From Escherichia coli (GTDB lineage: Bacteria > Pseudomonadota > Gammaproteobacteria > Enterobacterales > Enterobacteriaceae), in assembly GCF_051903065.1 (NCBI RefSeq), contig NZ_CP178438.1: DNA of 64,000 nucleotides; one strand, written 5' to 3'. Below, piece by piece: positions 2,487 to 13,979 of this stretch (position 1 is its first letter; every line of letters starts with the position of its first letter). Below the pieces are notes generated by a model, which was given only the letters and a program-made list of their open reading frames with translations, did no database searches and was not told the origin of the DNA. Both the position numbers and the translations under genes were made by a program.

Positions 2487-2511
2487 AAAAGGCCGCTATG
2501 CGGCCTTTTTT
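2487..2511. terminator. Bidirectional hairpin terminator between portal gene and convergent cargo gene
   Basis: ggccgc-tat-gcggcc stem-loop flanked by A-run and T-run. Confidence 0.6.
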
Positions 2512-3202
2512 AATTTGCGTCATCATTTTTTTTATTTTCTAAAGACTCAATATACCCTCGCAAATTAAATTCTTTATTTTCTCTGAGTTTAGGTCCTTCT
2601 TTAGTATCTGAGCCTCGTTGCTCACGTAAACTTTTATTCAAAGCATCGATCAATTCTTGTCTAGAGATTTCCGTTGCAATTAACCCATCAAAATATCTCT
2701 TCATTTTTCTCGCGCTCTCGGTTACTTTAACAACTTCAAAACCAAGGCAGAGCAAATAAATTAGCGTTGTTATTGTAAATCCAGTATCTACAGAGATAAA
2801 ATAGCCAATATCGAGCACTTTCTTAAGTGATTCCAAGGGCATAACCATGCACAATAAAACCAAAAGCAAACCAGTGCCAAGATATAAATAAGTCATTGAG
2901 TTTCTTTCAATCAGCTTGAAGTACTCATCTCTCTGACCTTCAAAGCTAGCAACAATCTTAGGGGGTGTTTTTTTTGGAAGATCGAGGTCTCGAATTTTAT
3001 CCTGAAGATCTACGTATCTTTTAATAAGTAAACCGACTATGGCAGCAGTGATTAATGAAAGCGTTTTCGATAAAATATTGCCCATTTCCACGAGCACATT
3101 TAATTTATAATTAATCAGATATACTACACTCGATGCCAATACTCCACTTAAAATGGATAATATTATATAAAACGCATATCGCTCCACTCGATTTTTAATC
3201 AT
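2510..3202 (-). CDS. Hypothetical 4-TM membrane protein (candidate effector of a two-gene cargo cassette)
   Basis: 230-aa ORF with about four hydrophobic helices and a charged C-terminal tail; AT-rich; overlaps upstream gene by 4 bp. Confidence 0.6.
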   Translation of the reverse strand: MIKNRVERYAFYIILSILSGVLASSVVYLINYKLNVLVEMGNILSKTLSLITAAIVGLLIKRYVDLQDKIRDLDLPKKTPPKIVASFEGQRDEYFKLIERNSMTYLYLGTGLLLVLLCMVMPLESLKKVLDIGYFISVDTGFTITTLIYLLCLGFEVVKVTESARKMKRYFDGLIATEISRQELIDALNKSLREQRGSDTKEGPKLRENKEFNLRGYIESLENKKNDDAN

Positions 3203-4188
3203 GGATTTATTACCCCATCAGCTAACAATCTGAGCAACCACTCTACCATTTCCTCACAAACGCTATCAATAACAGGCATCCCATTATTATATTCAATATT
3301 GACGGTGTCTTTTATTTGTATTTCGTCATTTCTTAAAATACCTGCGCCTTTTAACTCTATGGTTAATGCTTCATCACGGTTATCGATAAGAGCCTCCGTA
3401 ATTTTCCTTAAAATATTTTGTTCCTCATCATTAGCTTTATATTTATACCCTATAGAAACATCTATCGTTAAATGTTCTCGAGACATGTCAACTGAAACAT
3501 CCTGTGATGCATTGTGTTTACGCAACACATCAACTCTGTGCTCACCGATAAGAGATTTCAATAATTCACTAGCGACATCATCTACTCCATCTCCATAAGA
3601 GGATAGAGGCAGCTTCAAGCTTACATTTTTTACATTGCTACGCATCAGCAATTCATTAGTCAAACGTAAATTTCCTGCTTGTAATATAATAAAGTTATCA
3701 ACATCAACCCTTAGATTATCCTTCAAAATGTAATTAATATAATTTTCAATATCTTTAATTCTAATTGCACGACTTTGCAATATTATTACATGATTTTTGA
3801 CAATCCCGATATATGCAACACTATCTAAATATTCTTTCGGAACACTTCCAGTAAGCTTTAATGCTTCATAAGCCAATCGATTTTTTTTATATTCTGAAAC
3901 ATCAAAAACTGGCACACTATTCCCTGGCTCAATATAAACTATTTCACCAAAAAATATACCATTCCGTTCGAAGGAATCAGATAAAACCATGTGCGCGTGG
4001 CTGCTAACACAAGGGTCACTATCTCCAGTTTCAAGATAGTAAATTCTGTCCTCAACGGTTGGAAACTTGTGATTAACAATTTCGTTCATACGATTCTGCA
4101 AATCACTTGCTAAAAGAGCATCCTTTTTAGGAAGCATTACTGCGTGTCGATAGTGTAACGCTTTAACTTTTGAGGGATTACTGGCCAT
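3199..4188 (-). CDS. Hypothetical soluble protein (candidate sensor partner of the 4-TM protein); alternative TTG start at 4230
   Basis: ORF 3199..4230 in track; the ATG at 4188 (MASNPSKV) has a GGA 7 nt upstream; AT-rich; no family recognised. Confidence 0.55.
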   Translation of the reverse strand: MASNPSKVKALHYRHAVMLPKKDALLASDLQNRMNEIVNHKFPTVEDRIYYLETGDSDPCVSSHAHMVLSDSFERNGIFFGEIVYIEPGNSVPVFDVSEYKKNRLAYEALKLTGSVPKEYLDSVAYIGIVKNHVIILQSRAIRIKDIENYINYILKDNLRVDVDNFIILQAGNLRLTNELLMRSNVKNVSLKLPLSSYGDGVDDVASELLKSLIGEHRVDVLRKHNASQDVSVDMSREHLTIDVSIGYKYKANDEEQNILRKITEALIDNRDEALTIELKGAGILRNDEIQIKDTVNIEYNNGMPVIDSVCEEMVEWLLRLLADGVINP

Positions 4189-4270
4189 GAAACATCCATT
4201 ATTAATCTTAGATTTAGTGATATGGAACAATCATACAATCTGTTAATTTTTCTTGCCACAACTCCTTTTC

Positions 4271-4498: not shown

Positions 4499-4732
4499 TT
4501 AATGCAGCCAGCTGTCGTCTTCCCACACCTTCTGCATAATTTTCATCACTTGTTTTCTTTCTTCGTCCAGTTGCAGTCCGGTCAGTTCCACACCGTTAGA
4601 GCTACCTTTGCGGATACGAATTACCGTTTTGGGATACAGGGGGCGCAGATTGCGGTAAAGCTCGGATTCAAGGGCGTCCAGTGTAGACTGGCTAATCTTC
4701 TGCTCTTTATCGATCATTATTTCAATGCGCAT
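4499..4732 (-). CDS. DinI-like protein (possibly the C-terminal part of a frameshifted tum-like antirepressor gene)
   Basis: Translation MRIEIMIDKEQ...WEDDSWLH resembles the DinI family; the longer ORF 4499..4804 overlaps the upstream small ORF in another frame. Confidence 0.6.
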   Translation of the reverse strand: MRIEIMIDKEQKISQSTLDALESELYRNLRPLYPKTVIRIRKGSSNGVELTGLQLDEERKQVMKIMQKVWEDDSWLH

Positions 4733-4742
4733 AAAAGTCACC

Positions 4743-4931
4743 TCAGCTGATGACATCCATTGAGCGGTTGTATTCGTGGGTTCTGATTTTTGCCATGAGT
4801 TCATCTGTCAGTTCAGAAACCCACTGCAGAGCCAGCCCCTTCTCTTCATCACTACACTCACTAGCCGCTACAAGCTTAAGAAAAAAATCAATGCGCTGGA
4901 GCTTCAAAGACTCCAAAAAATAGTCCTGCAT
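4743..4931 (-). CDS. Small SOS-regulated ORF (possible N-terminal part of a tum-like gene)
   Basis: 62-aa ORF directly downstream of a LexA box; with the DinI-like ORF spans about 144 codons. Confidence 0.4.
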   Translation of the reverse strand: MQDYFLESLKLQRIDFFLKLVAASECSDEEKGLALQWVSELTDELMAKIRTHEYNRSMDVIS

Positions 4932-4972
4932 CTTTCCTCCTATGACACCAAAGCAATACTGTATATATAATC

Positions 4973-4992
4973 ACTGTTTATATTTACAGTAT
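4973..4992. promoter_or_regulatory. LexA (SOS) box upstream of the tum/DinI-like operon
   Basis: CTGT-N8-ACAG core (ctgtttatatttacag) at 4974..4989 in an AT-rich promoter region, preceded by a CTGT half-site. Confidence 0.6.
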
Positions 4993-5083: not shown

Positions 5084-7498
5084 TTAATACAGGTTTCGCC
5101 ACTTATCATCTTCCTGCAAACGCTGGTTCCGATAGAAGATACGCAGGCCTGCTCCTGACGGAATACTGCCACCGCGAAGGAGTAAATCGACCTCTTTCTC
5201 GCTGCCATCAAATCCTCTGGACTTCAGTTCATAGACGAGCTGCTGTCGCTGATGATCTGTAATTCGCTGTTTGTAGTCTTTACGCCGTTTCGGCTTAACC
5301 AGGCGTAACCTTGCTGCCAGTTCCCGGCGCTCTTTTTTGCTCATACTGTGCAGATAATCGTGCAACTCCTTGTCATCCATGCGGGTAATATCCGTTCTGG
5401 TGTCCCCATCAGCTGATTTATCTTTCTCCTGTTGGTTCAAATTTTCAGCAAGGGGACAGTTATTGCCACGAGTCCAAGGGGCGCAAGCGCCCTGGTCGGC
5501 TACCGCCTCCTGAACGTCAACGGCTTTACGAACCATTTTCCACTTCACTGCATGAGTGCAGATCTTGCCCTCTGCAATGGGTGACCAGATGCCATAAATA
5601 CGAATGCCGTGATCGCCATAGGCGGTCGGCTCTTCGTTAATTTCATAAGCAGTTCTGATGAGGTGATATTTGCGGGGAACCAGTACGCCACCCTGCTTCA
5701 TGATGTAAGTGGCAAAACAACCAGCATCAGCAGCAGCCAGGATGGCATCAAGGCGCGGGTTATCCAGTACCGGCGCACCTGCTTTTTTGTCGCCCTGTTG
5801 CCTTGCCGCCTGACCAGCCAGCAATCGCAGTTCACGGTAAGCCTGACGCCCCGGAATACCAAAGAAGCGGAATTGCTGAACACGATGCAGAGACGCCCAG
5901 GCATTAACGTATTCAGCGTTATCACGCAGGGATTTACCCGTTTCCTTGCTGATCTCGCCAGCCAGACCACGCCCGTCAATGTTCTTACTAATGTATTTCG
6001 CAATGTAGCTTGTCGGCGTTCCTTTGCGCGGGTTTATCAGCTCAGACTTAAAGCGTGGCCCCGTGTTATTGCCCAGCTCCTCGCGGTCTTCACGGATGGC
6101 AAACTTACGCAACAATGCAGTAATGGCGCGGCGGTCTTTTTTGCGCATGAAACACAACAGGTGCCAGTGAACTGTGCCGTCATGATGCGGCTCAGCCACC
6201 CGCACGCCATACCAGCGCAACCCGGCTTTGTGCATAGCCTTACGAAATGCAGCAAACATGCCGACCAGATAATCGCTGCTTTGTCTTACTGTCGCGTTGG
6301 TCCAGGTCGGGTTTGGCCTGCCGTTATTTAGCGTGGAATGGAAACGTGACGGACAGGTGATGGTGTAGAAAACGGCGCAGTCACCACGCATTTCCGCGAT
6401 AAGCTCCAGGCCTTTAACACAGGCCATCATCTCGTTGCGGCGATGCGCCGGGTTGCTGCTGCTGGCGTTTACCACATCCTCCATGTTCAGCGTGTCGCCG
6501 TCTTCGTTCACCAGTTCATGAGAACGGAAAAACTCCAGCGACTTACGGCGCTGCTCACGTTTATGCATCACGGCTTCATAGCTAACATAGGGAGATGCTT
6601 TTTTGCTGACCAGGCAGACAGCACGCAACTGCTCTTCCCGCAATTCGCAACGCATCTTCCATAATTTCCGATACCACCAGTCGGCGCACAGCATACGCGC
6701 CAGCGAACCCGGAATGAGTTCATAAGGCACAGGTTTGCGGCGGTTTCTTTTCCGGCGGAGTTGCTCAAACGCAGGCGGTATGACATCCAGTCGCAGGGTT
6801 TCTGCAGCCACCTTTTCCCATGTCTTGCGGATTTCTTCTGGCTTAACATCATCGGAGGCGTACAAATCACCACAAGCGGCATCAAGACACATGCTCATAT
6901 GCGCAGCGACAAGGGTAGACAGGCGTTTCACCTGATCCTGACTCATTTCAGGCAGGATCAGCAGACCGTCCAGCCCCTCATGGCTTGCCATAAAACGAAA
7001 AGATGCAGATAGCTGGCTGTCGCGTACATGCTCCAGTCGTTCCAGACATGGCTTAATCGTCTCACGCAAATAGCGGGAATAAGCCTTTGGCCTGCCCATG
7101 CTGCTGAAATATTCAATACGTTGCATCAGCGGCTTGCTGATATGGGAAGGCTGGGCGTTGACGTCAGCCAGAATGACCATGTCTGGATTAAAACGCTGCT
7201 GCTCATGCGCCATCTTTGCCCGGCTAATGAGCTTATCCTGCTCCATTTCGCGTTGGACAGGATCACGGGATTCATTAAAGAAATAATGCTCCCAGACCTG
7301 ATCACTCAGTGCCTCGCGGCGCAGTTGTTCCTGCTCGTTATCGGTAGCGTACAGAGTGATCAGGTTTGAAAGCGCAGAAACCGGCGCAACTTCCGCCGGG
7401 TCCAGATAAGGGTTAATGGCCTTTTTCGGGCTGTTCCATGAGAACGCTGCGGCAGCCTCGTTAAAGCCGCAGCAGTTGTTCATATCGGCATGACTCAT
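5084..7498 (-). CDS. Phage replication initiation protein (P2/186 gene A-like rolling-circle endonuclease)
   Basis: 804-aa ORF in the early-operon position of P2-like phages. Confidence 0.75.
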
Positions 7499-8352
7499 GC
7501 ACGTACTCCGTACACGGCAGAACTATCCACGCCACGCGAATAATCAAATCCCACCCAGCAGCGCGGCCCGGAAACAGCAATGATTTCTGTTGCTGATTTA
7601 CCCTCGCCAGCTGCCACACCGATGCTGCGTTTTACCTTGATATAGTGGTGAATAAAATTGCGATACAGCGAACGGATCAGGGATGTGTCACTGTTAGAAA
7701 CAATGACCGGATGTCCTTCTGATGACCGATGTTCAAGAACGGATGCCAGGTGATACTGATCATCTTCAGTGAAACCATCAGTGTGATAGCCGGAAAACGT
7801 ACCGTCATACGGCGGATCGCAATACACCACATCCCCCGCCTTCAACATCGCCAGCGTTTCATCAAAGCTGGCGCAGATAAACGTTGCTCGCTGGGCTTTT
7901 TCTGCAAATGCGCGAATTTCTTTTTCAGGGAAATACGGATTTTTATAATTACCGTAGGGAATGTTGAAATGCCCGCTCTTGTTATAGCGACATAAACCAC
8001 GGTAACCGTGACGATTGAGATACAGGAAATATACCGCTTTCATGAAATCAGTAATTTCAGTTGAGTAATTAAACTCCTGCCTTATGTTGTAATAAGCCAC
8101 CTCCCTGTTTGCGATCTCAAATAAAACTCTGGCGCGAGATATAAACGATTCACAATCAGCAGCAACCTTTTTATAGAGGTTGATTAAATCAGGATTAATA
8201 TCCGCAACAAGATAGCTGGGGTACTCCGTCTCCATCATCACTGCACAGGAACCCGCGAAAGGTTCAACCAGTCGCGGGCCAGCAGGAAGGTGTTTTTTCA
8301 GTTCGGACATAATTGCGGTTTTATTTCCCGCCCATTTCAGGATGGTGCTCAT
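7495..8352 (-). CDS. DNA adenine methyltransferase (Dam-like, phage-encoded orphan MTase); start may lie further upstream at 8412
   Basis: ILKWAGNK N-terminal motif and DPPY catalytic motif in translation. Confidence 0.8.
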
Positions 8353-8576
8353 ACAGCACCTCCGTTGTAATGTTTGCCTTTCAGCTCTGCGATTTCCTGA
8401 CAGGTAATGCAAAGCTGCACTCCAGGAATGGCGCGGCGGCGTGCTGGCGGAATTGGCACTTCACATTCAATGCAAAGCACGCGAGACACGCCCGGTGTTT
8501 TGGCACGGGCAGCACGGATATGGCGCTGGCGTTCTTCTTCAACGCGCTGCTGTACGAGATCCATTGCATCAGCCAT
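8349..8576 (-). CDS. TraR/DksA-family C4 zinc-finger protein
   Basis: 75-aa ORF with CxxC...CxxC spacing (CIECEVPI...CITCQE). Confidence 0.6.
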   Translation of the reverse strand: MADAMDLVQQRVEEERQRHIRAARAKTPGVSRVLCIECEVPIPPARRRAIPGVQLCITCQEIAELKGKHYNGGAV

Positions 8577-9218: not shown

Positions 9219-9412
9219 TTGTTCCCCCGTTTTTTCGTAGATAGTTCTGCCAGCAATTCATCTTGTGAACGGCACGGATGCCAGCGTTTACCATCCTCAC
9301 CCATGATCCAGCCGTGACCGTAGTGCATTGCCGGGCTTTGTTTAACCAGCAGCGATGCAAATGATGGTTCTTTCGTAAGCATAAGCACCTCACAGCAAAC
9401 CGAATGAAGCAC
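9182..9412 (-). CDS. Hypothetical prophage early protein
   Basis: 76-aa ORF downstream of the CII-like gene. Confidence 0.35.
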   Translation of the reverse strand: MLHSVCCEVLMLTKEPSFASLLVKQSPAMHYGHGWIMGEDGKRWHPCRSQDELLAELSTKKRGNKWLLKALRRLFH

Positions 9413-9899
9413 CGAGGCCAGTCACGGTATCAACTGCACTCGCCATCGCAGGGTTAGCCTGTAAACGGGCCTGCAGTGAAACAGCAGCCAGCGCCATCAG
9501 TCGTGTTACAGAGTTAATGCTGCTGATAGCATCACGACGACCTGCACTGGTTTTTACATCGCCAGATACCGCACCTGCAGCAACACGCCCGATCTCTGCG
9601 GTTGCACTCATGACGTAATGCGGCAGTTTCTCTTTTGCTACCTCATTAATCGGTACACATGGCAGGCAGTGAATCTGTGCCAGAAAACCATCTATCAGCG
9701 TTGAATCTTCAGTCAGATCGGTAAGCAGCCAGATTTCTGGCGCATTGAGCTGATGCGGTTGATCTGGGTTGAGTTTGTTTCGCAGAGTCTGGACATTCAT
9801 TCCTGCACGTTCTGCCAGCTTCGCCATATTGTGACGAAGTGCAAAAGCTCTACAGGCTTCATCAAAATGCGGGTGTTTGGAAATCTTATAATCAAACAT
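9390..9899 (-). CDS. cII: 186 CII-like transcriptional activator
   Basis: 169-aa translation closely resembles coliphage 186 CII as recalled (MFDYKISKHPHFDEACRAFA...GASFGLL). Confidence 0.7.
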   Translation of the reverse strand: MFDYKISKHPHFDEACRAFALRHNMAKLAERAGMNVQTLRNKLNPDQPHQLNAPEIWLLTDLTEDSTLIDGFLAQIHCLPCVPINEVAKEKLPHYVMSATAEIGRVAAGAVSGDVKTSAGRRDAISSINSVTRLMALAAVSLQARLQANPAMASAVDTVTGLGASFGLL

Positions 9900-9931
9900 G
9901 CTACCCCCTTAGAAAGTTCTCATAATTGAAC

Positions 9932-10174
9932 TCACTTACCAACAATGACGCGGAAGTTGGAATGACCTAGGGATTCACGGACCTGATCGGTTTTGTACAT
10001 TAAATAACGCAGACTTACGCGGCCTTTGTTTTTTTCTTTCTTGACCATGTATTTAGCAAGCTGACCATGGTGAATTTTTTGATACACGGAGCCGCGGGAG
10101 ATACCTTCCCATTCCGCGAACTCTGCTGGCGTAGCCATCTCTTTTGGTACACGAATTGAAATATCAGTGCTCAT
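9932..10174 (-). CDS. Apl/Cox-like excisionase and lytic-switch HTH protein
   Basis: 80-aa HTH ORF first in the early operon, divergent from the repressor gene. Confidence 0.6.
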   Translation of the reverse strand: MSTDISIRVPKEMATPAEFAEWEGISRGSVYQKIHHGQLAKYMVKKEKNKGRVSLRYLMYKTDQVRESLGHSNFRVIVGK

Positions 10175-10233
10175 AGTGCAGTATCTCCCGATTAAGGTTT
10201 GGTTTACGTCGTTTTATCTCGTTTTACTTGATT

Positions 10234-10276
10234 CAATATTTGATACATCGAGATACTACGATCCAATATTTGATAC
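10234..10276. promoter_or_regulatory. Putative operator repeats in the CI/apl divergent promoter region
   Basis: Two copies of CAATATTTGATAC spaced 30 bp apart. Confidence 0.4.
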
Positions 10277-10293
10277 GTCAACAGGATTAAAAA

Positions 10294-10926
10294 ATGATAC
10301 AGGTAAAGGCTGGAGAGAATACAGGGGGAAGAGAGGCTATCCATAGACTAATGGCAGCCTATGATTTCAAGTCCAGACAGCAACTTTGCGATCACTTAGG
10401 CGCATCAAAAAGCACCATGGCAAACAGATACTTAAGAGATAGTTTTCCTGCAGAGTGGGTGATTCAGTGCGCCTTGGAAACAGGAGTTTCTTTACTGTGG
10501 CTAACCACCGGACAGGGAGAGCCAGGTCCAAACATTGAACCTAAAAAAAATATCAATTCCGTGAACTCCAGCAAAGTTGTACCTCTTTCTGAACTAGTAT
10601 CTCCTGAAATTGACAAGGCGACTCTCAACGGTGGTTTATTGGTCGATGCTGGAAAAGCAATCATTGATAGCAGCATACTCCCCTCAGACTCAAGCAACCT
10701 ACTGCTGGTGACTACTTCTGGTGATTCTTATTTAATAGATCGCAACCAAACACCACCAGTAAATGGTATGTGGTTAGTCGATATCGACGGGATAAAAAGC
10801 ATTGTTAAATTGACTCGGCTCCCGGGAAACAAATTAGTAGTGCATCAGGATGATTCATCGTTTGAGTGCGGTCTGGATGACATTGAGGTAGTAGGCCGCG
10901 CACTGAAAATCATTAAGAGCCTTTGA
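10294..10926 (+). CDS. cI: Prophage CI-like immunity repressor
   Basis: 210-aa ORF with N-terminal HTH, located directly upstream of int as in 186. Confidence 0.6.
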   Translation: MIQVKAGENTGGREAIHRLMAAYDFKSRQQLCDHLGASKSTMANRYLRDSFPAEWVIQCALETGVSLLWLTTGQGEPGPNIEPKKNINSVNSSKVVPLSELVSPEIDKATLNGGLLVDAGKAIIDSSILPSDSSNLLLVTTSGDSYLIDRNQTPPVNGMWLVDIDGIKSIVKLTRLPGNKLVVHQDDSSFECGLDDIEVVGRALKIIKSL

Positions 10927-10927
10927 T

Positions 10928-11941
10928 ATGACCATCAGAAAACAGCCGAACGGAAAATGGTTGTGTGAGTGCTATCCCAATGGACGCAATGGCAAGCGCG
11001 TGCGTAAGCAATTTGCTACGAAAGGCGAAGCCATTGCGTTTGAAAGCTTCACAATGGAAGAAGTGAATAAAAAACCGTGGTTGGGTGAAAAGGATGATCG
11101 GCGACGCCTATCAGAATTAATTGAGCTTTGGTATTCCCTGTATGGTCAAACACTCGCAGACCCCAAGCGCCTCATGGCGAAACTTAGAATTATCTGTAAT
11201 GGTCTAGGCGATCCCATCGCCTCAGAACTGACAGCTGGTGACTTTACAAAATACCGCGAAGCACGGTTAAAAGGTGAAATACGAAATGAAGATGGCACGC
11301 TTATGTCGCCCGTTAAGCCCCGCACGGTAAACCTTGAACAGCGCAATCTATCATCTGTGTTCGGTACATTAAAAAAACTAGGACACTGGTCAGCACCAAA
11401 CCCGCTGGCAGGACTTCCGACCTTCAAAATTGCCGAAGGTGAGCTGGCTTTTCTTTCCACAGACGAAATCAAGCGCCTGTTGGCGGCATGTGCTGAATCT
11501 CAAAACCCTAGCTTACTAATGATTGCAAAAATATGCCTAGCTACTGGCGCACGGTGGAGTGAAGCCGAAAATCTGCAGGGCCACCAAATATCGAAATACC
11601 GAATTACTTATACAAAAACAAAAGGCAAGAAAAACAGAACAGTACCCATATCACAGGAGCTGTATGACGAACTCCCAAAGAACAGAGGGAAGTTATTCTC
11701 ACCATGTAGAAAAGCCTTTGAACGAGCAGTAAAACGGGCAGGTATAGATCTACCGGATGGCCAATGCACCCACGTGCTGCGACATACGTTTGCTAGTCAC
11801 TTTATGATGAATGGCGGGAACATACTTGTGCTAAGGGATATTTTGGGACATTCGGATATCAAGATGACCATGGTTTACTCACATTTCTCACCAGATCATC
11901 TTGAAGATGCCGTTACTAAGAACCCATTAAACTTGATATAA
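10928..11941 (+). CDS. int: Tyrosine integrase, P2 family
   Basis: 337 aa; C-terminal HxLRHT...Y catalytic region; resembles P2 Int. Confidence 0.9.
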   Translation: MTIRKQPNGKWLCECYPNGRNGKRVRKQFATKGEAIAFESFTMEEVNKKPWLGEKDDRRRLSELIELWYSLYGQTLADPKRLMAKLRIICNGLGDPIASELTAGDFTKYREARLKGEIRNEDGTLMSPVKPRTVNLEQRNLSSVFGTLKKLGHWSAPNPLAGLPTFKIAEGELAFLSTDEIKRLLAACAESQNPSLLMIAKICLATGARWSEAENLQGHQISKYRITYTKTKGKKNRTVPISQELYDELPKNRGKLFSPCRKAFERAVKRAGIDLPDGQCTHVLRHTFASHFMMNGGNILVLRDILGHSDIKMTMVYSHFSPDHLEDAVTKNPLNLI

Positions 11942-11954
11942 AACAGCCAAAATT

Positions 11955-13712
11955 CTATTTCATCAAGTAATCCAATTCATCCTTCATAGGTATAACTTGC
12001 TCATAAAGTCTATGGTAGGATTTTCCAATTGCGCCCCTAAATTGAATAAGTTTAGGGGAAAAGCTACCGATATTAATAATATGTTCTTGCGCTATACCAG
12101 GATATGGATCGATAAAAATAATCTCTGTCATACCTAACTGATAAGCTTTTTTAGCACAAAGTTCACAAGGGCTAGCTGTAGTATATAGTTTCCCTCCATT
12201 AATACCGACCCCACCATATTTGGCCAATTGCAAAAAAGCATTCTCCTCTGCGTGTAATGCACGGGTATGCACTTGATTCCCTTTCTTTTCATCATCAAGG
12301 CTGTTGTGAATATCTTTAAAACAATATGGCAAATTAAGTCCTTTAAAAACAGTAGAACTTGAATCACTCGCCCTTATTTTTATTAAATTTTCTTTAACTT
12401 TACTCCTAAATTTTGTATTACTTCGTTCGTACAGGCTATATGTTCCCTCATCAAAATCATGCAATAACCCATCAAATGACCTCATAGAACAAGGAACTTG
12501 ACCTTTTGCTACATCGTTCCAACCAACTGACTTGATAGAGTTATCATTATCTGTCACAACCGCCCCTACTTGCCTAGATATACATCCAGAATTTAGTTTT
12601 ACAGTATATGCAACTTGCATAACCCTTTCCATGGCGGTAGGAGATATTAATCCAGGGTGTTGCATTAATGATACATACCACGCAATTTGTGCTTTGAGAA
12701 AATTATTATTATCAAATTCTTTTTTAGGGTTAAAAAAATGTATATCTGAAATTTCAATGCATTTTTTTACATTAGGATTAGTAAGATGATTATACTCGCC
12801 ATCTCCTTTACCAGATTCTTCATCATTAATTTTCTTTATCTGTTCCTCTGAGAACTTATGTAATTTCTTTAAATATCTGGTTCGATGTTCATCTGGTGCA
12901 TTTATAGAAACCAGATGGAATGCAGCATATCTATCTTTGAAGAATTTAGCTTCATACGGGTTACGTATCGCATCAATGACTATATACGCTTTATTATTCT
13001 TTACTTTTCTAATTATTTTAATAACACGATTAATTGTTTCAGGTAAATGAAAAACAGCCTTTGGAATAAAGTCTTGATTTTCATAATCTACATCAACCTT
13101 CCCTATTCTTCTAATTGACTTTCCTGCTGACTGATATAGCTCAATATATAAACCTGGCTCTAGTTCATTTAATTCCCTTTTAAAATCCCGTGTAAATTTT
13201 CGAGTAAGAGTTAATATCCTAATAAAGGTATCTTTCCCCCTGCCTTTAAAGTCAATCTCATCATCATGATTAAGAAGATTTTTTATCACCTCAAGATATT
13301 TTATCTTCAACAAACTTTTAGCGAACACACCATTAACAACCAGTTTCTTGGCTACCTTAAAGGAAATCGAATTTTCTTTTTTATCGGGGATTTTACTTGC
13401 AGAAAACTGAATGAATTTAGCTAAGGCCGATGGAGATAAAAGGAGCAAATATATTGAAATGAGATCACTGACCTTTATCGAATAGAAGTTCTTCCAATGA
13501 GTCTCTGCAAAATTTTTTACTATTTCATAACGCCGCAAATCCAATCCTTTATAATACTCAGCCAAGACGTTACTATCTGGAAAAGATATTTCTTTTTGTT
13601 CTAAAATATTTGCTGCAGTAGTACATCCTGAGCCAGTTCTCCCAGTTAAACCAATAAGAATAAATTGACTATTTTCTAAAAAAAGCTCACTAATAAATTT
13701 GTGTTCTCTCAT
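11955..13712 (-). CDS. P-loop nucleotide-kinase / cytidine-deaminase fusion protein (candidate antiphage dCTP-deaminase-type cargo gene)
   Basis: N-terminal GLTGRTGSGCTT Walker-A-like motif; C-terminal HAEENA...PCELC zinc-deaminase motif; AT-rich; lies between int and attR. Confidence 0.65.
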   Translation of the reverse strand: MREHKFISELFLENSQFILIGLTGRTGSGCTTAANILEQKEISFPDSNVLAEYYKGLDLRRYEIVKNFAETHWKNFYSIKVSDLISIYLLLLSPSALAKFIQFSASKIPDKKENSISFKVAKKLVVNGVFAKSLLKIKYLEVIKNLLNHDDEIDFKGRGKDTFIRILTLTRKFTRDFKRELNELEPGLYIELYQSAGKSIRRIGKVDVDYENQDFIPKAVFHLPETINRVIKIIRKVKNNKAYIVIDAIRNPYEAKFFKDRYAAFHLVSINAPDEHRTRYLKKLHKFSEEQIKKINDEESGKGDGEYNHLTNPNVKKCIEISDIHFFNPKKEFDNNNFLKAQIAWYVSLMQHPGLISPTAMERVMQVAYTVKLNSGCISRQVGAVVTDNDNSIKSVGWNDVAKGQVPCSMRSFDGLLHDFDEGTYSLYERSNTKFRSKVKENLIKIRASDSSSTVFKGLNLPYCFKDIHNSLDDEKKGNQVHTRALHAEENAFLQLAKYGGVGINGGKLYTTASPCELCAKKAYQLGMTEIIFIDPYPGIAQEHIINIGSFSPKLIQFRGAIGKSYHRLYEQVIPMKDELDYLMK

Positions 13713-13934
13713 TTCGCACCTGTTACGTTATAACACAAGTCTCTTCCATGTTGTATTTATTAGTATTTATTAAAAAACAAGAAATTGCAACATAGCGGTA
13801 ACAATACACACACCAAGAAAATGGCGGCAACTTGGCGGCAGAGCTTTAAAAACGTATAAAACGGATAAACACAAAACAATACCAACCAACTGTTTTTGAA
13901 AACAAATTATTGTTTTCATTATAATATAAATGGT

Positions 13935-13979
13935 ATGTAGGAATTTCGGACGCGGGTTCAACTCCCGCCAGCTCCACCA
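13935..13979 (+). other. Partial duplicate of ssrA (tmRNA) 3' end: prophage/island attR
   Basis: ATGTAGGAATTTCGGACGCGGGTTCAACTCCCGCCAGCTCCACCA matches the tmRNA 3' terminus (T-arm, acceptor, CCA) with no upstream tmRNA body. Confidence 0.85.

Follow-up and report, generated by a model that had tools for sequence, protein, structure and literature searches.

The two direct repeats in the spacer between the repressor gene and the apl-like gene of a P2/186-like prophage are very probably operators, here called O1 and O2, for the prophage's own CI repressor of the 186 family, at a switch in which the promoters pR and pL would face each other. The anatomy of the repeats, their position relative to the predicted promoters, their co-variation with the N-terminal domain of CI and their patterns of conservation are seen directly in the sequences and their comparison. 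The original prediction had named the repeats candidate operators of the lysis-lysogeny switch; the overlap with predicted pR, the co-variation with the DNA-binding domain of CI and a footprint in 94 relatives support it, and the recurrence of the operator core under apparent DNA-level selection, at a position homologous to FL of phage 186, supports it further.

Anatomy of the repeats

The 64-kb stretch of DNA analysed (the window) begins inside this prophage of E. coli, and around the prophage the chromosome is that of an ordinary E. coli. The prophage has its nearest phage relatives in the Fels-2/SopEPhi group of 186-like phages, namely Klebsiella Kp4845-2, Salmonella SEN8 and SopEPhi, and Yersinia MLG42. 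The prophage repressor CI matches PF07022 (N-terminal helix-turn-helix domain, 5.4e-31) and PF16452 (C-terminal oligomerisation domain, 5.6e-28), and in the PDB it matches 2FJR (186 CI, E = 1.5e-27) and 2FKD (7e-14). It is 34% identical to 186 CI, with an interdomain linker about 16 residues longer; a longer linker has likewise been noted before (PMC3448106).

An exact search finds CAATATTTGATAC twice on the + strand, at 10234-10246 and 10264-10276, which confirms two copies 30 bp apart, this being the distance from start to start, with 17 bp between the two 13-mers. Both copies lie in the 119-bp spacer (10175-10293) that runs from the start of the apl-like gene (10174, - strand) to the start of cI (10294, + strand). 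With up to two mismatches allowed, the only other match in the window is at 2420 (2 mismatches), within the portal gene. The repeat units lengthen to 20 nt, GATTCAATATTTGATACATC (10230-10249) and GATCCAATATTTGATACGTC (10260-10279), with 18/20 identity. Dinucleotide-preserving shuffles of the spacer (2000) gave a longest exact direct repeat of 11 nt against the 13 observed, and a best 20-mer pair of 16/20 against 18/20; because none of the 2000 equals the observed spacer, the repeat is not due to chance.

The copies are directly repeated, as had been described, but each is also an imperfect 17-bp palindrome in itself. The two 17-mers share the core YCAA-N3-TTGA, and their palindromy is modest, at 5/8 and 4/8 outer pairs. 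A site of this form is as expected for a helix-turn-helix dimer. The coordinates of these and the other features are collected in Table 1.

Table 1. Positions of the proposed switch elements, genes and associated loci in the window
Feature	Position	Strand	Sequence or basis
O1, proposed CI operator	10230-10246		GATTCAATATTTGATAC, imperfect palindrome, core TCAA-N3-TTGA, centre 10238
O2, proposed CI operator	10260-10276		GATCCAATATTTGATAC, centre 10268
pR, predicted lytic promoter toward apl	10253-10281	-	-35 TTGACG (10281-10276), 17-nt spacer, -10 TAGTAT (10258-10253)
pL, inferred lysogenic promoter facing pR	10156-10184	+	-35 TTGAAA (10156-10161), 17-nt spacer, -10 CAGTAT (10179-10184)
Candidate Apl operators	10196-10228	+	CGTTTTA at 10210 and 10220 (10-bp spacing); GGTTTAC at 10201; GGTTTGG at 10196
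FL-like distal operator candidate	10525-10541		GGTCCAAACATTGAACC, cI codons 78-83 (interdomain linker), 265 bp from O2
Second DNA-level conserved element in cI	10551-10567		TATCAATTCCGTGAACT, centre 25.5 bp from FL-like site
Palindrome at 186 FR position	9915-9932		AGTTCTCATAATTGAACT, overlaps -10-like CATAAT
cI, 210-aa repressor, 186 CI family	10294-10926	+	Pfam, PDB, identity to 186 CI
apl/cox-like gene, 80 aa, first in lytic operon	9932-10174	-	annotation in relatives: Apl, excisionase or Cox-like
cII	9390-9899	-	PF06892
int	10928-11941	+	
LexA-box-like site	4974-4989		CTGTTTATATTTACAG, upstream of 62-aa ORF and DinI-like ORF
62-aa ORF	4743-4931	-	overlaps DinI-like ORF
DinI-like ORF	4499-4804	-	PF06183 DinI, 1.3e-22
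Two 186-type Int arm-type sites	13822 and 13833		TGGCGGCA
Apl-like repeats by att	13847-13877		TAAAAACG, TAAAACG, ATAAAC, CAAAAC; spacing 7-10 bp
att site	13940-13979		duplicated partial ssrA 3' end

Position relative to the predicted promoters

The repeats fall on predicted promoter elements and not outside them. O2 occupies the spacer between the -10 and -35 hexamers of predicted pR, overlapping the -35 by 1 nt, and O1 lies over the predicted start, spanning about +1 to +17. Predicted pR is the sole promoter-like site on the - strand in a consensus scan, and it is placed, relative to apl and cI, as the pR annotated in the 186 GenBank record. Its -10 is kept in the 94 relatives described below; the -35 was fixed by the search pattern with which they were collected.

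The facing promoter pL is too weak to be detected by the consensus scan. Counted from the apl start, its hexamers stand exactly where those of annotated 186 pL (TTGCGA-17-CATGAT) do, and the block is kept in 8/8 aligned phages, with an invariant -35 and one change in the -10. Matched by position to the switch annotated in 186, pR and pL would thus be convergent, as in 186 and P2, with predicted start sites about 55 bp apart. The divergent arrangement originally described holds for the cI and apl-like genes, but not for their promoters, which would stand face-to-face.

A candidate third operator at pR, GGATTAAAAAATGATAC (10284-10300), resembles the repeat but is not supported. The site falls one base short of the repeat's length, relatives differ in its left half, and the start codons of cI constrain the right half.

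The window's densest cluster of GATAC/GTATC (7 in 216 bp) is at 10081-10296. We dropped GATAC as an independent motif, as every part of the cluster belongs to something else: the two repeats, the -10 regions of pR and pL, which resemble each other, the start codons of cI, and a pair of sites within apl. Part of this cluster is an 8-nt perfect inverted repeat common to the two -10 regions (AGTATCTC at 10180-10187 and GAGATACT at 10250-10257, 62 nt apart), which is not kept in the other presumed immunity types. No known RNA family was found in the region.

Conservation footprint in relatives

Conservation of O1 was read from a sample of 94 unique, colinear sequences of the window's own type (type A, below), taken from IMG/VR stretches and other loci; the search pattern, which retrieved 120 IMG/VR stretches, was anchored on O2 and the -35 only and left O1 unconstrained. 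GATTCAA (O1 positions 1-7), A9 and TTGA (positions 11-14) are conserved in 90-94 of the 94 sequences, whereas variation is free at positions 8, 10 and 15-17 and in the adjoining bases. The O1 core stands at the exact 30-bp spacing in 87/94. Such a pattern, with half-sites and spacing fixed and centre and flanks variable, is that expected of a dimer-binding operator, and not of a promoter hexamer. Imperfect as the palindromes themselves are, this footprint is symmetric.

The footprint bears on two other explanations. The repeats could be promoter elements (for example TTGATA as -35 and CAATAT as -10) of rightward cI promoters: the TTGATA of copy 1 stands 18 nt ahead of the CAATAT of copy 2, and the consensus scan reports a + strand promoter-like TTGATA(10270)-17-AATGAT. 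We consider this very unlikely. The yield of the scan is within chance (2 sites against 1.3 expected), conservation tracks the palindrome (GATTCAA and TTGA) and not the hexamers, the other sequence types have the flanks of the same promoters with unrelated sequences at the repeats, and the core is also kept within cI, at a place where a promoter would not be expected. A leftover of a local duplication, with no function, would equally produce two simple direct copies at a 30-bp period; this is extremely improbable, as the 13 bp separating the two 17-mers are not duplicated and the half-sites are kept across 94 diverged relatives while flanks and centre vary.

Natural exchange of the proposed operators, CI and Apl

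Relatives were sorted by the sequences at the O1 and O2 positions into four types, presumed from sequence alone to be immunity types. Type A comprises the window, Kp4845-2, SEN8, MLG42, SopEPhi and two E. coli prophages, with GATCCAATATTTGATAC as the 17-mer at the O2 position. The other three types each have a 17-mer of their own there: GATCACTTTTTATATAC in type B (Fels-2, AZ147 and E371), GATCTTGATTCAAGATT in type C (Cartapus, PK5 and EC17CM12) and GATCACTTTAAGTGATC in type D (E7476). The 17-mer is a strong palindrome in two of these three, with 7/8 pairs in type C and all 8/8 in type D, and in both C and D a similar but weaker sequence stands about 30 bp leftward of that position. Types A and B have both ends of the O2 17-mer in common. 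Within type A, the O1 of SopEPhi is degenerate (GATTCAATAATGGAACT).

The genes around the repeats have been exchanged in both directions. The Apl of the window is 100% identical in AZ147 (type B) and in Cartapus, PK5 and EC17CM12 (type C), and 98.8% identical in E7476 (type D); CII is 95-99% identical in phages with different O1/O2 sequences (99.4% for AZ147). The N-terminal domain of CI in the phages of other types shows just 66-78% identity to that of the window, and 66-76% in those with an Apl identical to the window's. Conversely, in five type A phages Apl is just 66-70% identical, yet O1 and O2 are retained and the CI N-terminal domain is 97-100% identical. Megablast against 5426 E. coli genomes finds many prophages that are 92-96% identical up to 10187, where similarity ends; the homology breakpoint with E. 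coli prophages of the other types is thus 10187/10188, just left of the repeats. By the swaps in both directions and this breakpoint, the repeats are seen to track the DNA-binding domain of CI and not Apl, CII or a host factor, and the assignment of O1 and O2 as putative CI sites, not Apl sites, is supported.

These exchanges decide against sites for an Apl/Cox-like excisionase-regulator, which we regard as highly improbable, although the copies are in direct orientation and Apl/Cox of 186 and P2 binds direct repeats between face-to-face promoters (PMC7498355). Apl stays 100% identical where the sequences at the O1/O2 positions are entirely different, and phages with 66-70% identical Apl retain the repeats. 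The known sites in 186 are 6-bp direct repeats 10-11 bp apart, present at both pR-pL and attP (PMC7498355), whereas O1 and O2 are units of 17-20 bp, spaced by 30 bp, and show no co-variation with Apl.

Better candidates for Apl adjoin the repeats. The CGTTTTA repeats, with their 10-bp spacing, fit the description of an Apl/Cox (RDF) array, sit between pL and O1 and recur in similar form near att, beside the two Int arm-type sites; each of the four presumed immunity types, Apl being common to them, retains one copy of CGTTTTA or more. It is likely, judging from these features, that they and not the 30-bp repeats are the Apl operators. The spacer had been described as a CI/Apl region; the repeats indeed follow CI, but Apl likely uses the separate CGTTTTA repeats nearby.

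The repeats might also be bound by a different protein, namely CII, a host factor (for example IHF), or a regulator for which Dam methylation of the GATC in O2 matters. The CII half-site ATCAAACAT (9891-9899) is similar to ATCAAATAT, which is part of the repeat read on the opposite strand, and the GATC at the left edge of O2 is kept in all types. There is little probability in this explanation, since a phage that differs at O1/O2 has a CII 99.4% identical to that of the window, and host factors fail to explain a type-specific replacement that tracks the N-terminal domain of CI.

The helix-turn-helix of CI differs little between types. In residues 31-48 the four presumed immunity types (window, L005, L006 and L012) have the same recognition-helix core, SKSTMANR, and the differences are limited to the turn (GA, EV, NV or KI), the residue after ANR (Y, Y, V or N), the N-terminal arm and helix 1. 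Such similar helix-turn-helix motifs would have to read very different 17-mers, which speaks against the assignment to CI, as do the modest symmetry of the sites, their arrangement, unlike that at 186 pR, and the degenerate O1 of SopEPhi. Codons 44-47 of cI (10423-10434, AACAGATACTTA), inside the recognition helix, form a short wobble-invariant run that holds another GATAC plus an AGATAC/AGATAG repeat.

The GATC (10260-10263) is kept at the O2 17-mer of all four sequence types, including the equivalent sites of L005, L006 and L012, despite the differing remainder of the operator. The prophage also encodes an adenine methyltransferase of the D12 class (Dam-like; 7495-8412, PF02086, 1.5e-75), and methylation-sensitive repressor binding or pR activity via this GATC is conceivable.

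A distal operator candidate within cI

The regular expression YCAA-N3-TTGA has three matches only in the 64 kb, O1, O2 and a site at 10528, and all are within 300 bp. In the complete genome of the type A phage SEN8, the motif, searched in both orientations, has five matches, of which three are these switch sites. The third site, FL-like, lies in coding sequence. Codon 79 of cI reads TCA, ACA, CCA or GCA (Ser, Thr, Pro or Ala) with its four-fold-degenerate wobble A fixed in 94/94, and the wobble T of codon 81 is kept in 91/94, with neighbouring wobble positions varying by 24-65%. Variability below 4% is seen at 8/14 wobble positions of codons 78-91, compared with 24/180 elsewhere in cI (Fisher p = 3.5e-4). 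This bias shows selection at the DNA level on the putative FL-like site. In the other types the wobble test lacks statistical power, with 20 unique sequences of almost no diversity in type C and 4 sequences in type D. By analogy, 10525-10541 probably acts like FL of 186, looping to the CI oligomer.

In the second conserved element, ATCAAT..NGTGAAC (10552-10566) is present in at least 93/94 sequences at every base, including four wobble bases; its half-site spacing is one base longer than in O1 and O2. The element (10551-10567) is a possible weak FL'-like CI site and partner of the FL-like site.

Codons 84-91 (10543-10566, AAAAAAAATATCAATTCCGTGAAC) have most of their wobble bases invariant or nearly so in the 94 relatives, against a median wobble variability of 26% in cI, a pattern which indicates a DNA- or RNA-level constraint in the linker-coding region.

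The palindrome at the position of 186 FR is kept in all four presumed immunity types, hence it is not type-specific, and its CATAAT is probably the -10 of the CII-dependent promoter pE. We accordingly dropped an FR equivalent as CI-specific evidence. No pB-like operator pair was found in the 64-kb window or in the complete SEN8 genome.

Proposed mechanism of the switch

Binding, cooperativity, looping and transcriptional interference are taken here from 186 by homology. One CI dimer would sit on each 17-bp palindrome and contact it with the N-terminal helix-turn-helix domains. With centres 30 bp apart, approximately three helical turns, O1 and O2 would present nearly the same face of the DNA, and adjacent dimers of a CI oligomer could fill them cooperatively, keeping RNA polymerase off pR. 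Exclusion from pR would leave apl, cII and the replication genes silent, and would relieve the weak facing pL of transcriptional interference, as in 186 (PMC3675496, PMC7708051), such that pL maintains expression of cI and int. The same CI oligomer could also be reached by the FL-like site through a DNA loop. For induction, a Tum-like antirepressor under LexA control is presumed. The window has a presumptive locus for it: 4499-4989, by analogy with the split tum of Fels-2 and PSP3 (PMC3121763), is taken to be a split operon of a Tum-type antirepressor and DinI, through which CI would be inactivated.

Comparison with known switches

Comparison with 186 gives a close match in layout. The repressor family (PF07022 plus PF16452, 34% identity, 2FJR match) and the gene order int-cI / apl-cII-fil are common to both, predicted pR and pL are opposed at offsets equal to those in 186, and the Tum-type antirepressor locus under LexA control has a presumed counterpart here. 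The operators of 186 are likewise 17 bp long with dyad symmetry (PMC3675496), one in the -10/-35 spacer of pR and one over the start site, as for O2 and O1. Single distal operators, FL and FR, stand about 300 bp to either side in 186; FL is in the linker-coding part of cI, its distance of about 300 bp comparing with 265 bp for the FL-like site, and the cryptic FL' is 30.5 bp beyond FL, compared with 25.5 bp for the element here (PMC3675496).

There are also differences. Length, dyad symmetry and promoter placement agree with the 186 CI operators, but the sequences are unrelated (ATCTCCCAATTGAGAGAT and ATTCAC-N5-GTGAAT in 186, TCAA-N3-TTGA here), and the number and spacing of sites differ: 186 pR has three operators at two-turn intervals over 56 bp, whereas here two strong sites are 30 bp, or three turns, apart. 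The interdomain linker of 186 CI is about 16 residues shorter, the 186 pR and pL starts are 62 bp apart against the predicted 55 bp or so, and an equivalent of FR is not demonstrably type-specific here. The geometry of O1 and O2 is nearer to the 186 pB pair than to 186 pR. At pB two CI sites, bound with high affinity by 186 CI, are about three turns apart (32 bp against 30 bp; PMC3675496), but that pair governs the late-activator promoter pB and not pR.

It is a tentative idea, and rather unlikely to hold, that the SopEPhi/Fels-2 branch uses a natural three-turn spacing of dimers (30 bp for O1-O2 and about 25.5 bp for the FL-like and FL'-like sites), enabled by the linker of some 16 additional residues and with the distal operator encoded within the linker-coding sequence. 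A 'three-turn, about 180 bp wrap' alternative was reportedly raised by Wang et al. in 2013 because 186 CI wheels take up a greater length of DNA than would follow from the two-turn model. If the idea were true, a three-turn branch would be a natural test of that model.

In the OR region of phage lambda, several 17-bp pseudo-palindromic operators lie over the lytic promoter and are bound by cooperative helix-turn-helix dimers, with distant looping partners. This layout of operators over a lytic promoter with distant partner sites resembles the one proposed here. The oligomerisation fold and family are unrelated, however, lambda promoters are divergent where these would be convergent, and lambda is induced by RecA-stimulated cleavage, compared with the antirepressor expected here.

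The O1-O2 region of the C repressors of P2 and WPhi has two direct repeats that flank the -10 of the early promoter in a face-to-face switch, as here; the spacing is 22 nt (two turns) in P2 and 34 nt (about three turns) in WPhi, and operator sequences likewise differ between immunity classes (PMC1904263, PMC1904268). P2-type C is a small protein with short, non-palindromic half-sites (GTTTAGAT in P2), whereas the window has a two-domain repressor of 210 residues with 186-type domains, palindrome-like 17-bp units and a cII gene.

No operator mapping, binding or expression data for SopEPhi- or Fels-2-type CI were found in the searchable literature. The analysis supplies a probable operator (YCAA-N3-TTGA within a 17-mer) and a switch layout for a widespread 186-like immunity type, the switch of which had so far been deduced only by analogy with 186 and which occurs in E. 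coli and in Salmonella (SopEPhi, SEN8), Klebsiella and Yersinia phages. It can serve for annotation, for prediction of superinfection immunity between prophages and for the choice of constructs when the DNA geometry of CI wheels is compared. The repeats would be an ordinary, expected part of a 186/SopEPhi-type switch, and the understanding of phage switches is unchanged.

Attachment region and cargo genes

ARAGORN finds no intact tmRNA gene at the attachment region (13822-13979), so the intact ssrA must be at the other end of the prophage, outside the window. Between the portal gene and the tum/dinI region, adjacent - strand ORFs of 230 aa (probably membrane-associated) and 343 aa at 2510-4230, with no Pfam or PADLOC match, mark a candidate second cargo or defence hotspot. 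A 585-aa cargo gene lies between int and att (11955-13712, - strand). Its product is nucleotide-kinase-like at the N-terminus and includes a cytidine/dCMP deaminase domain, and the gene matches the PADLOC dCTPase model at 2e-146; by these matches it is a predicted anti-phage dCTP deaminase defence gene in a hotspot of P2-like prophages.
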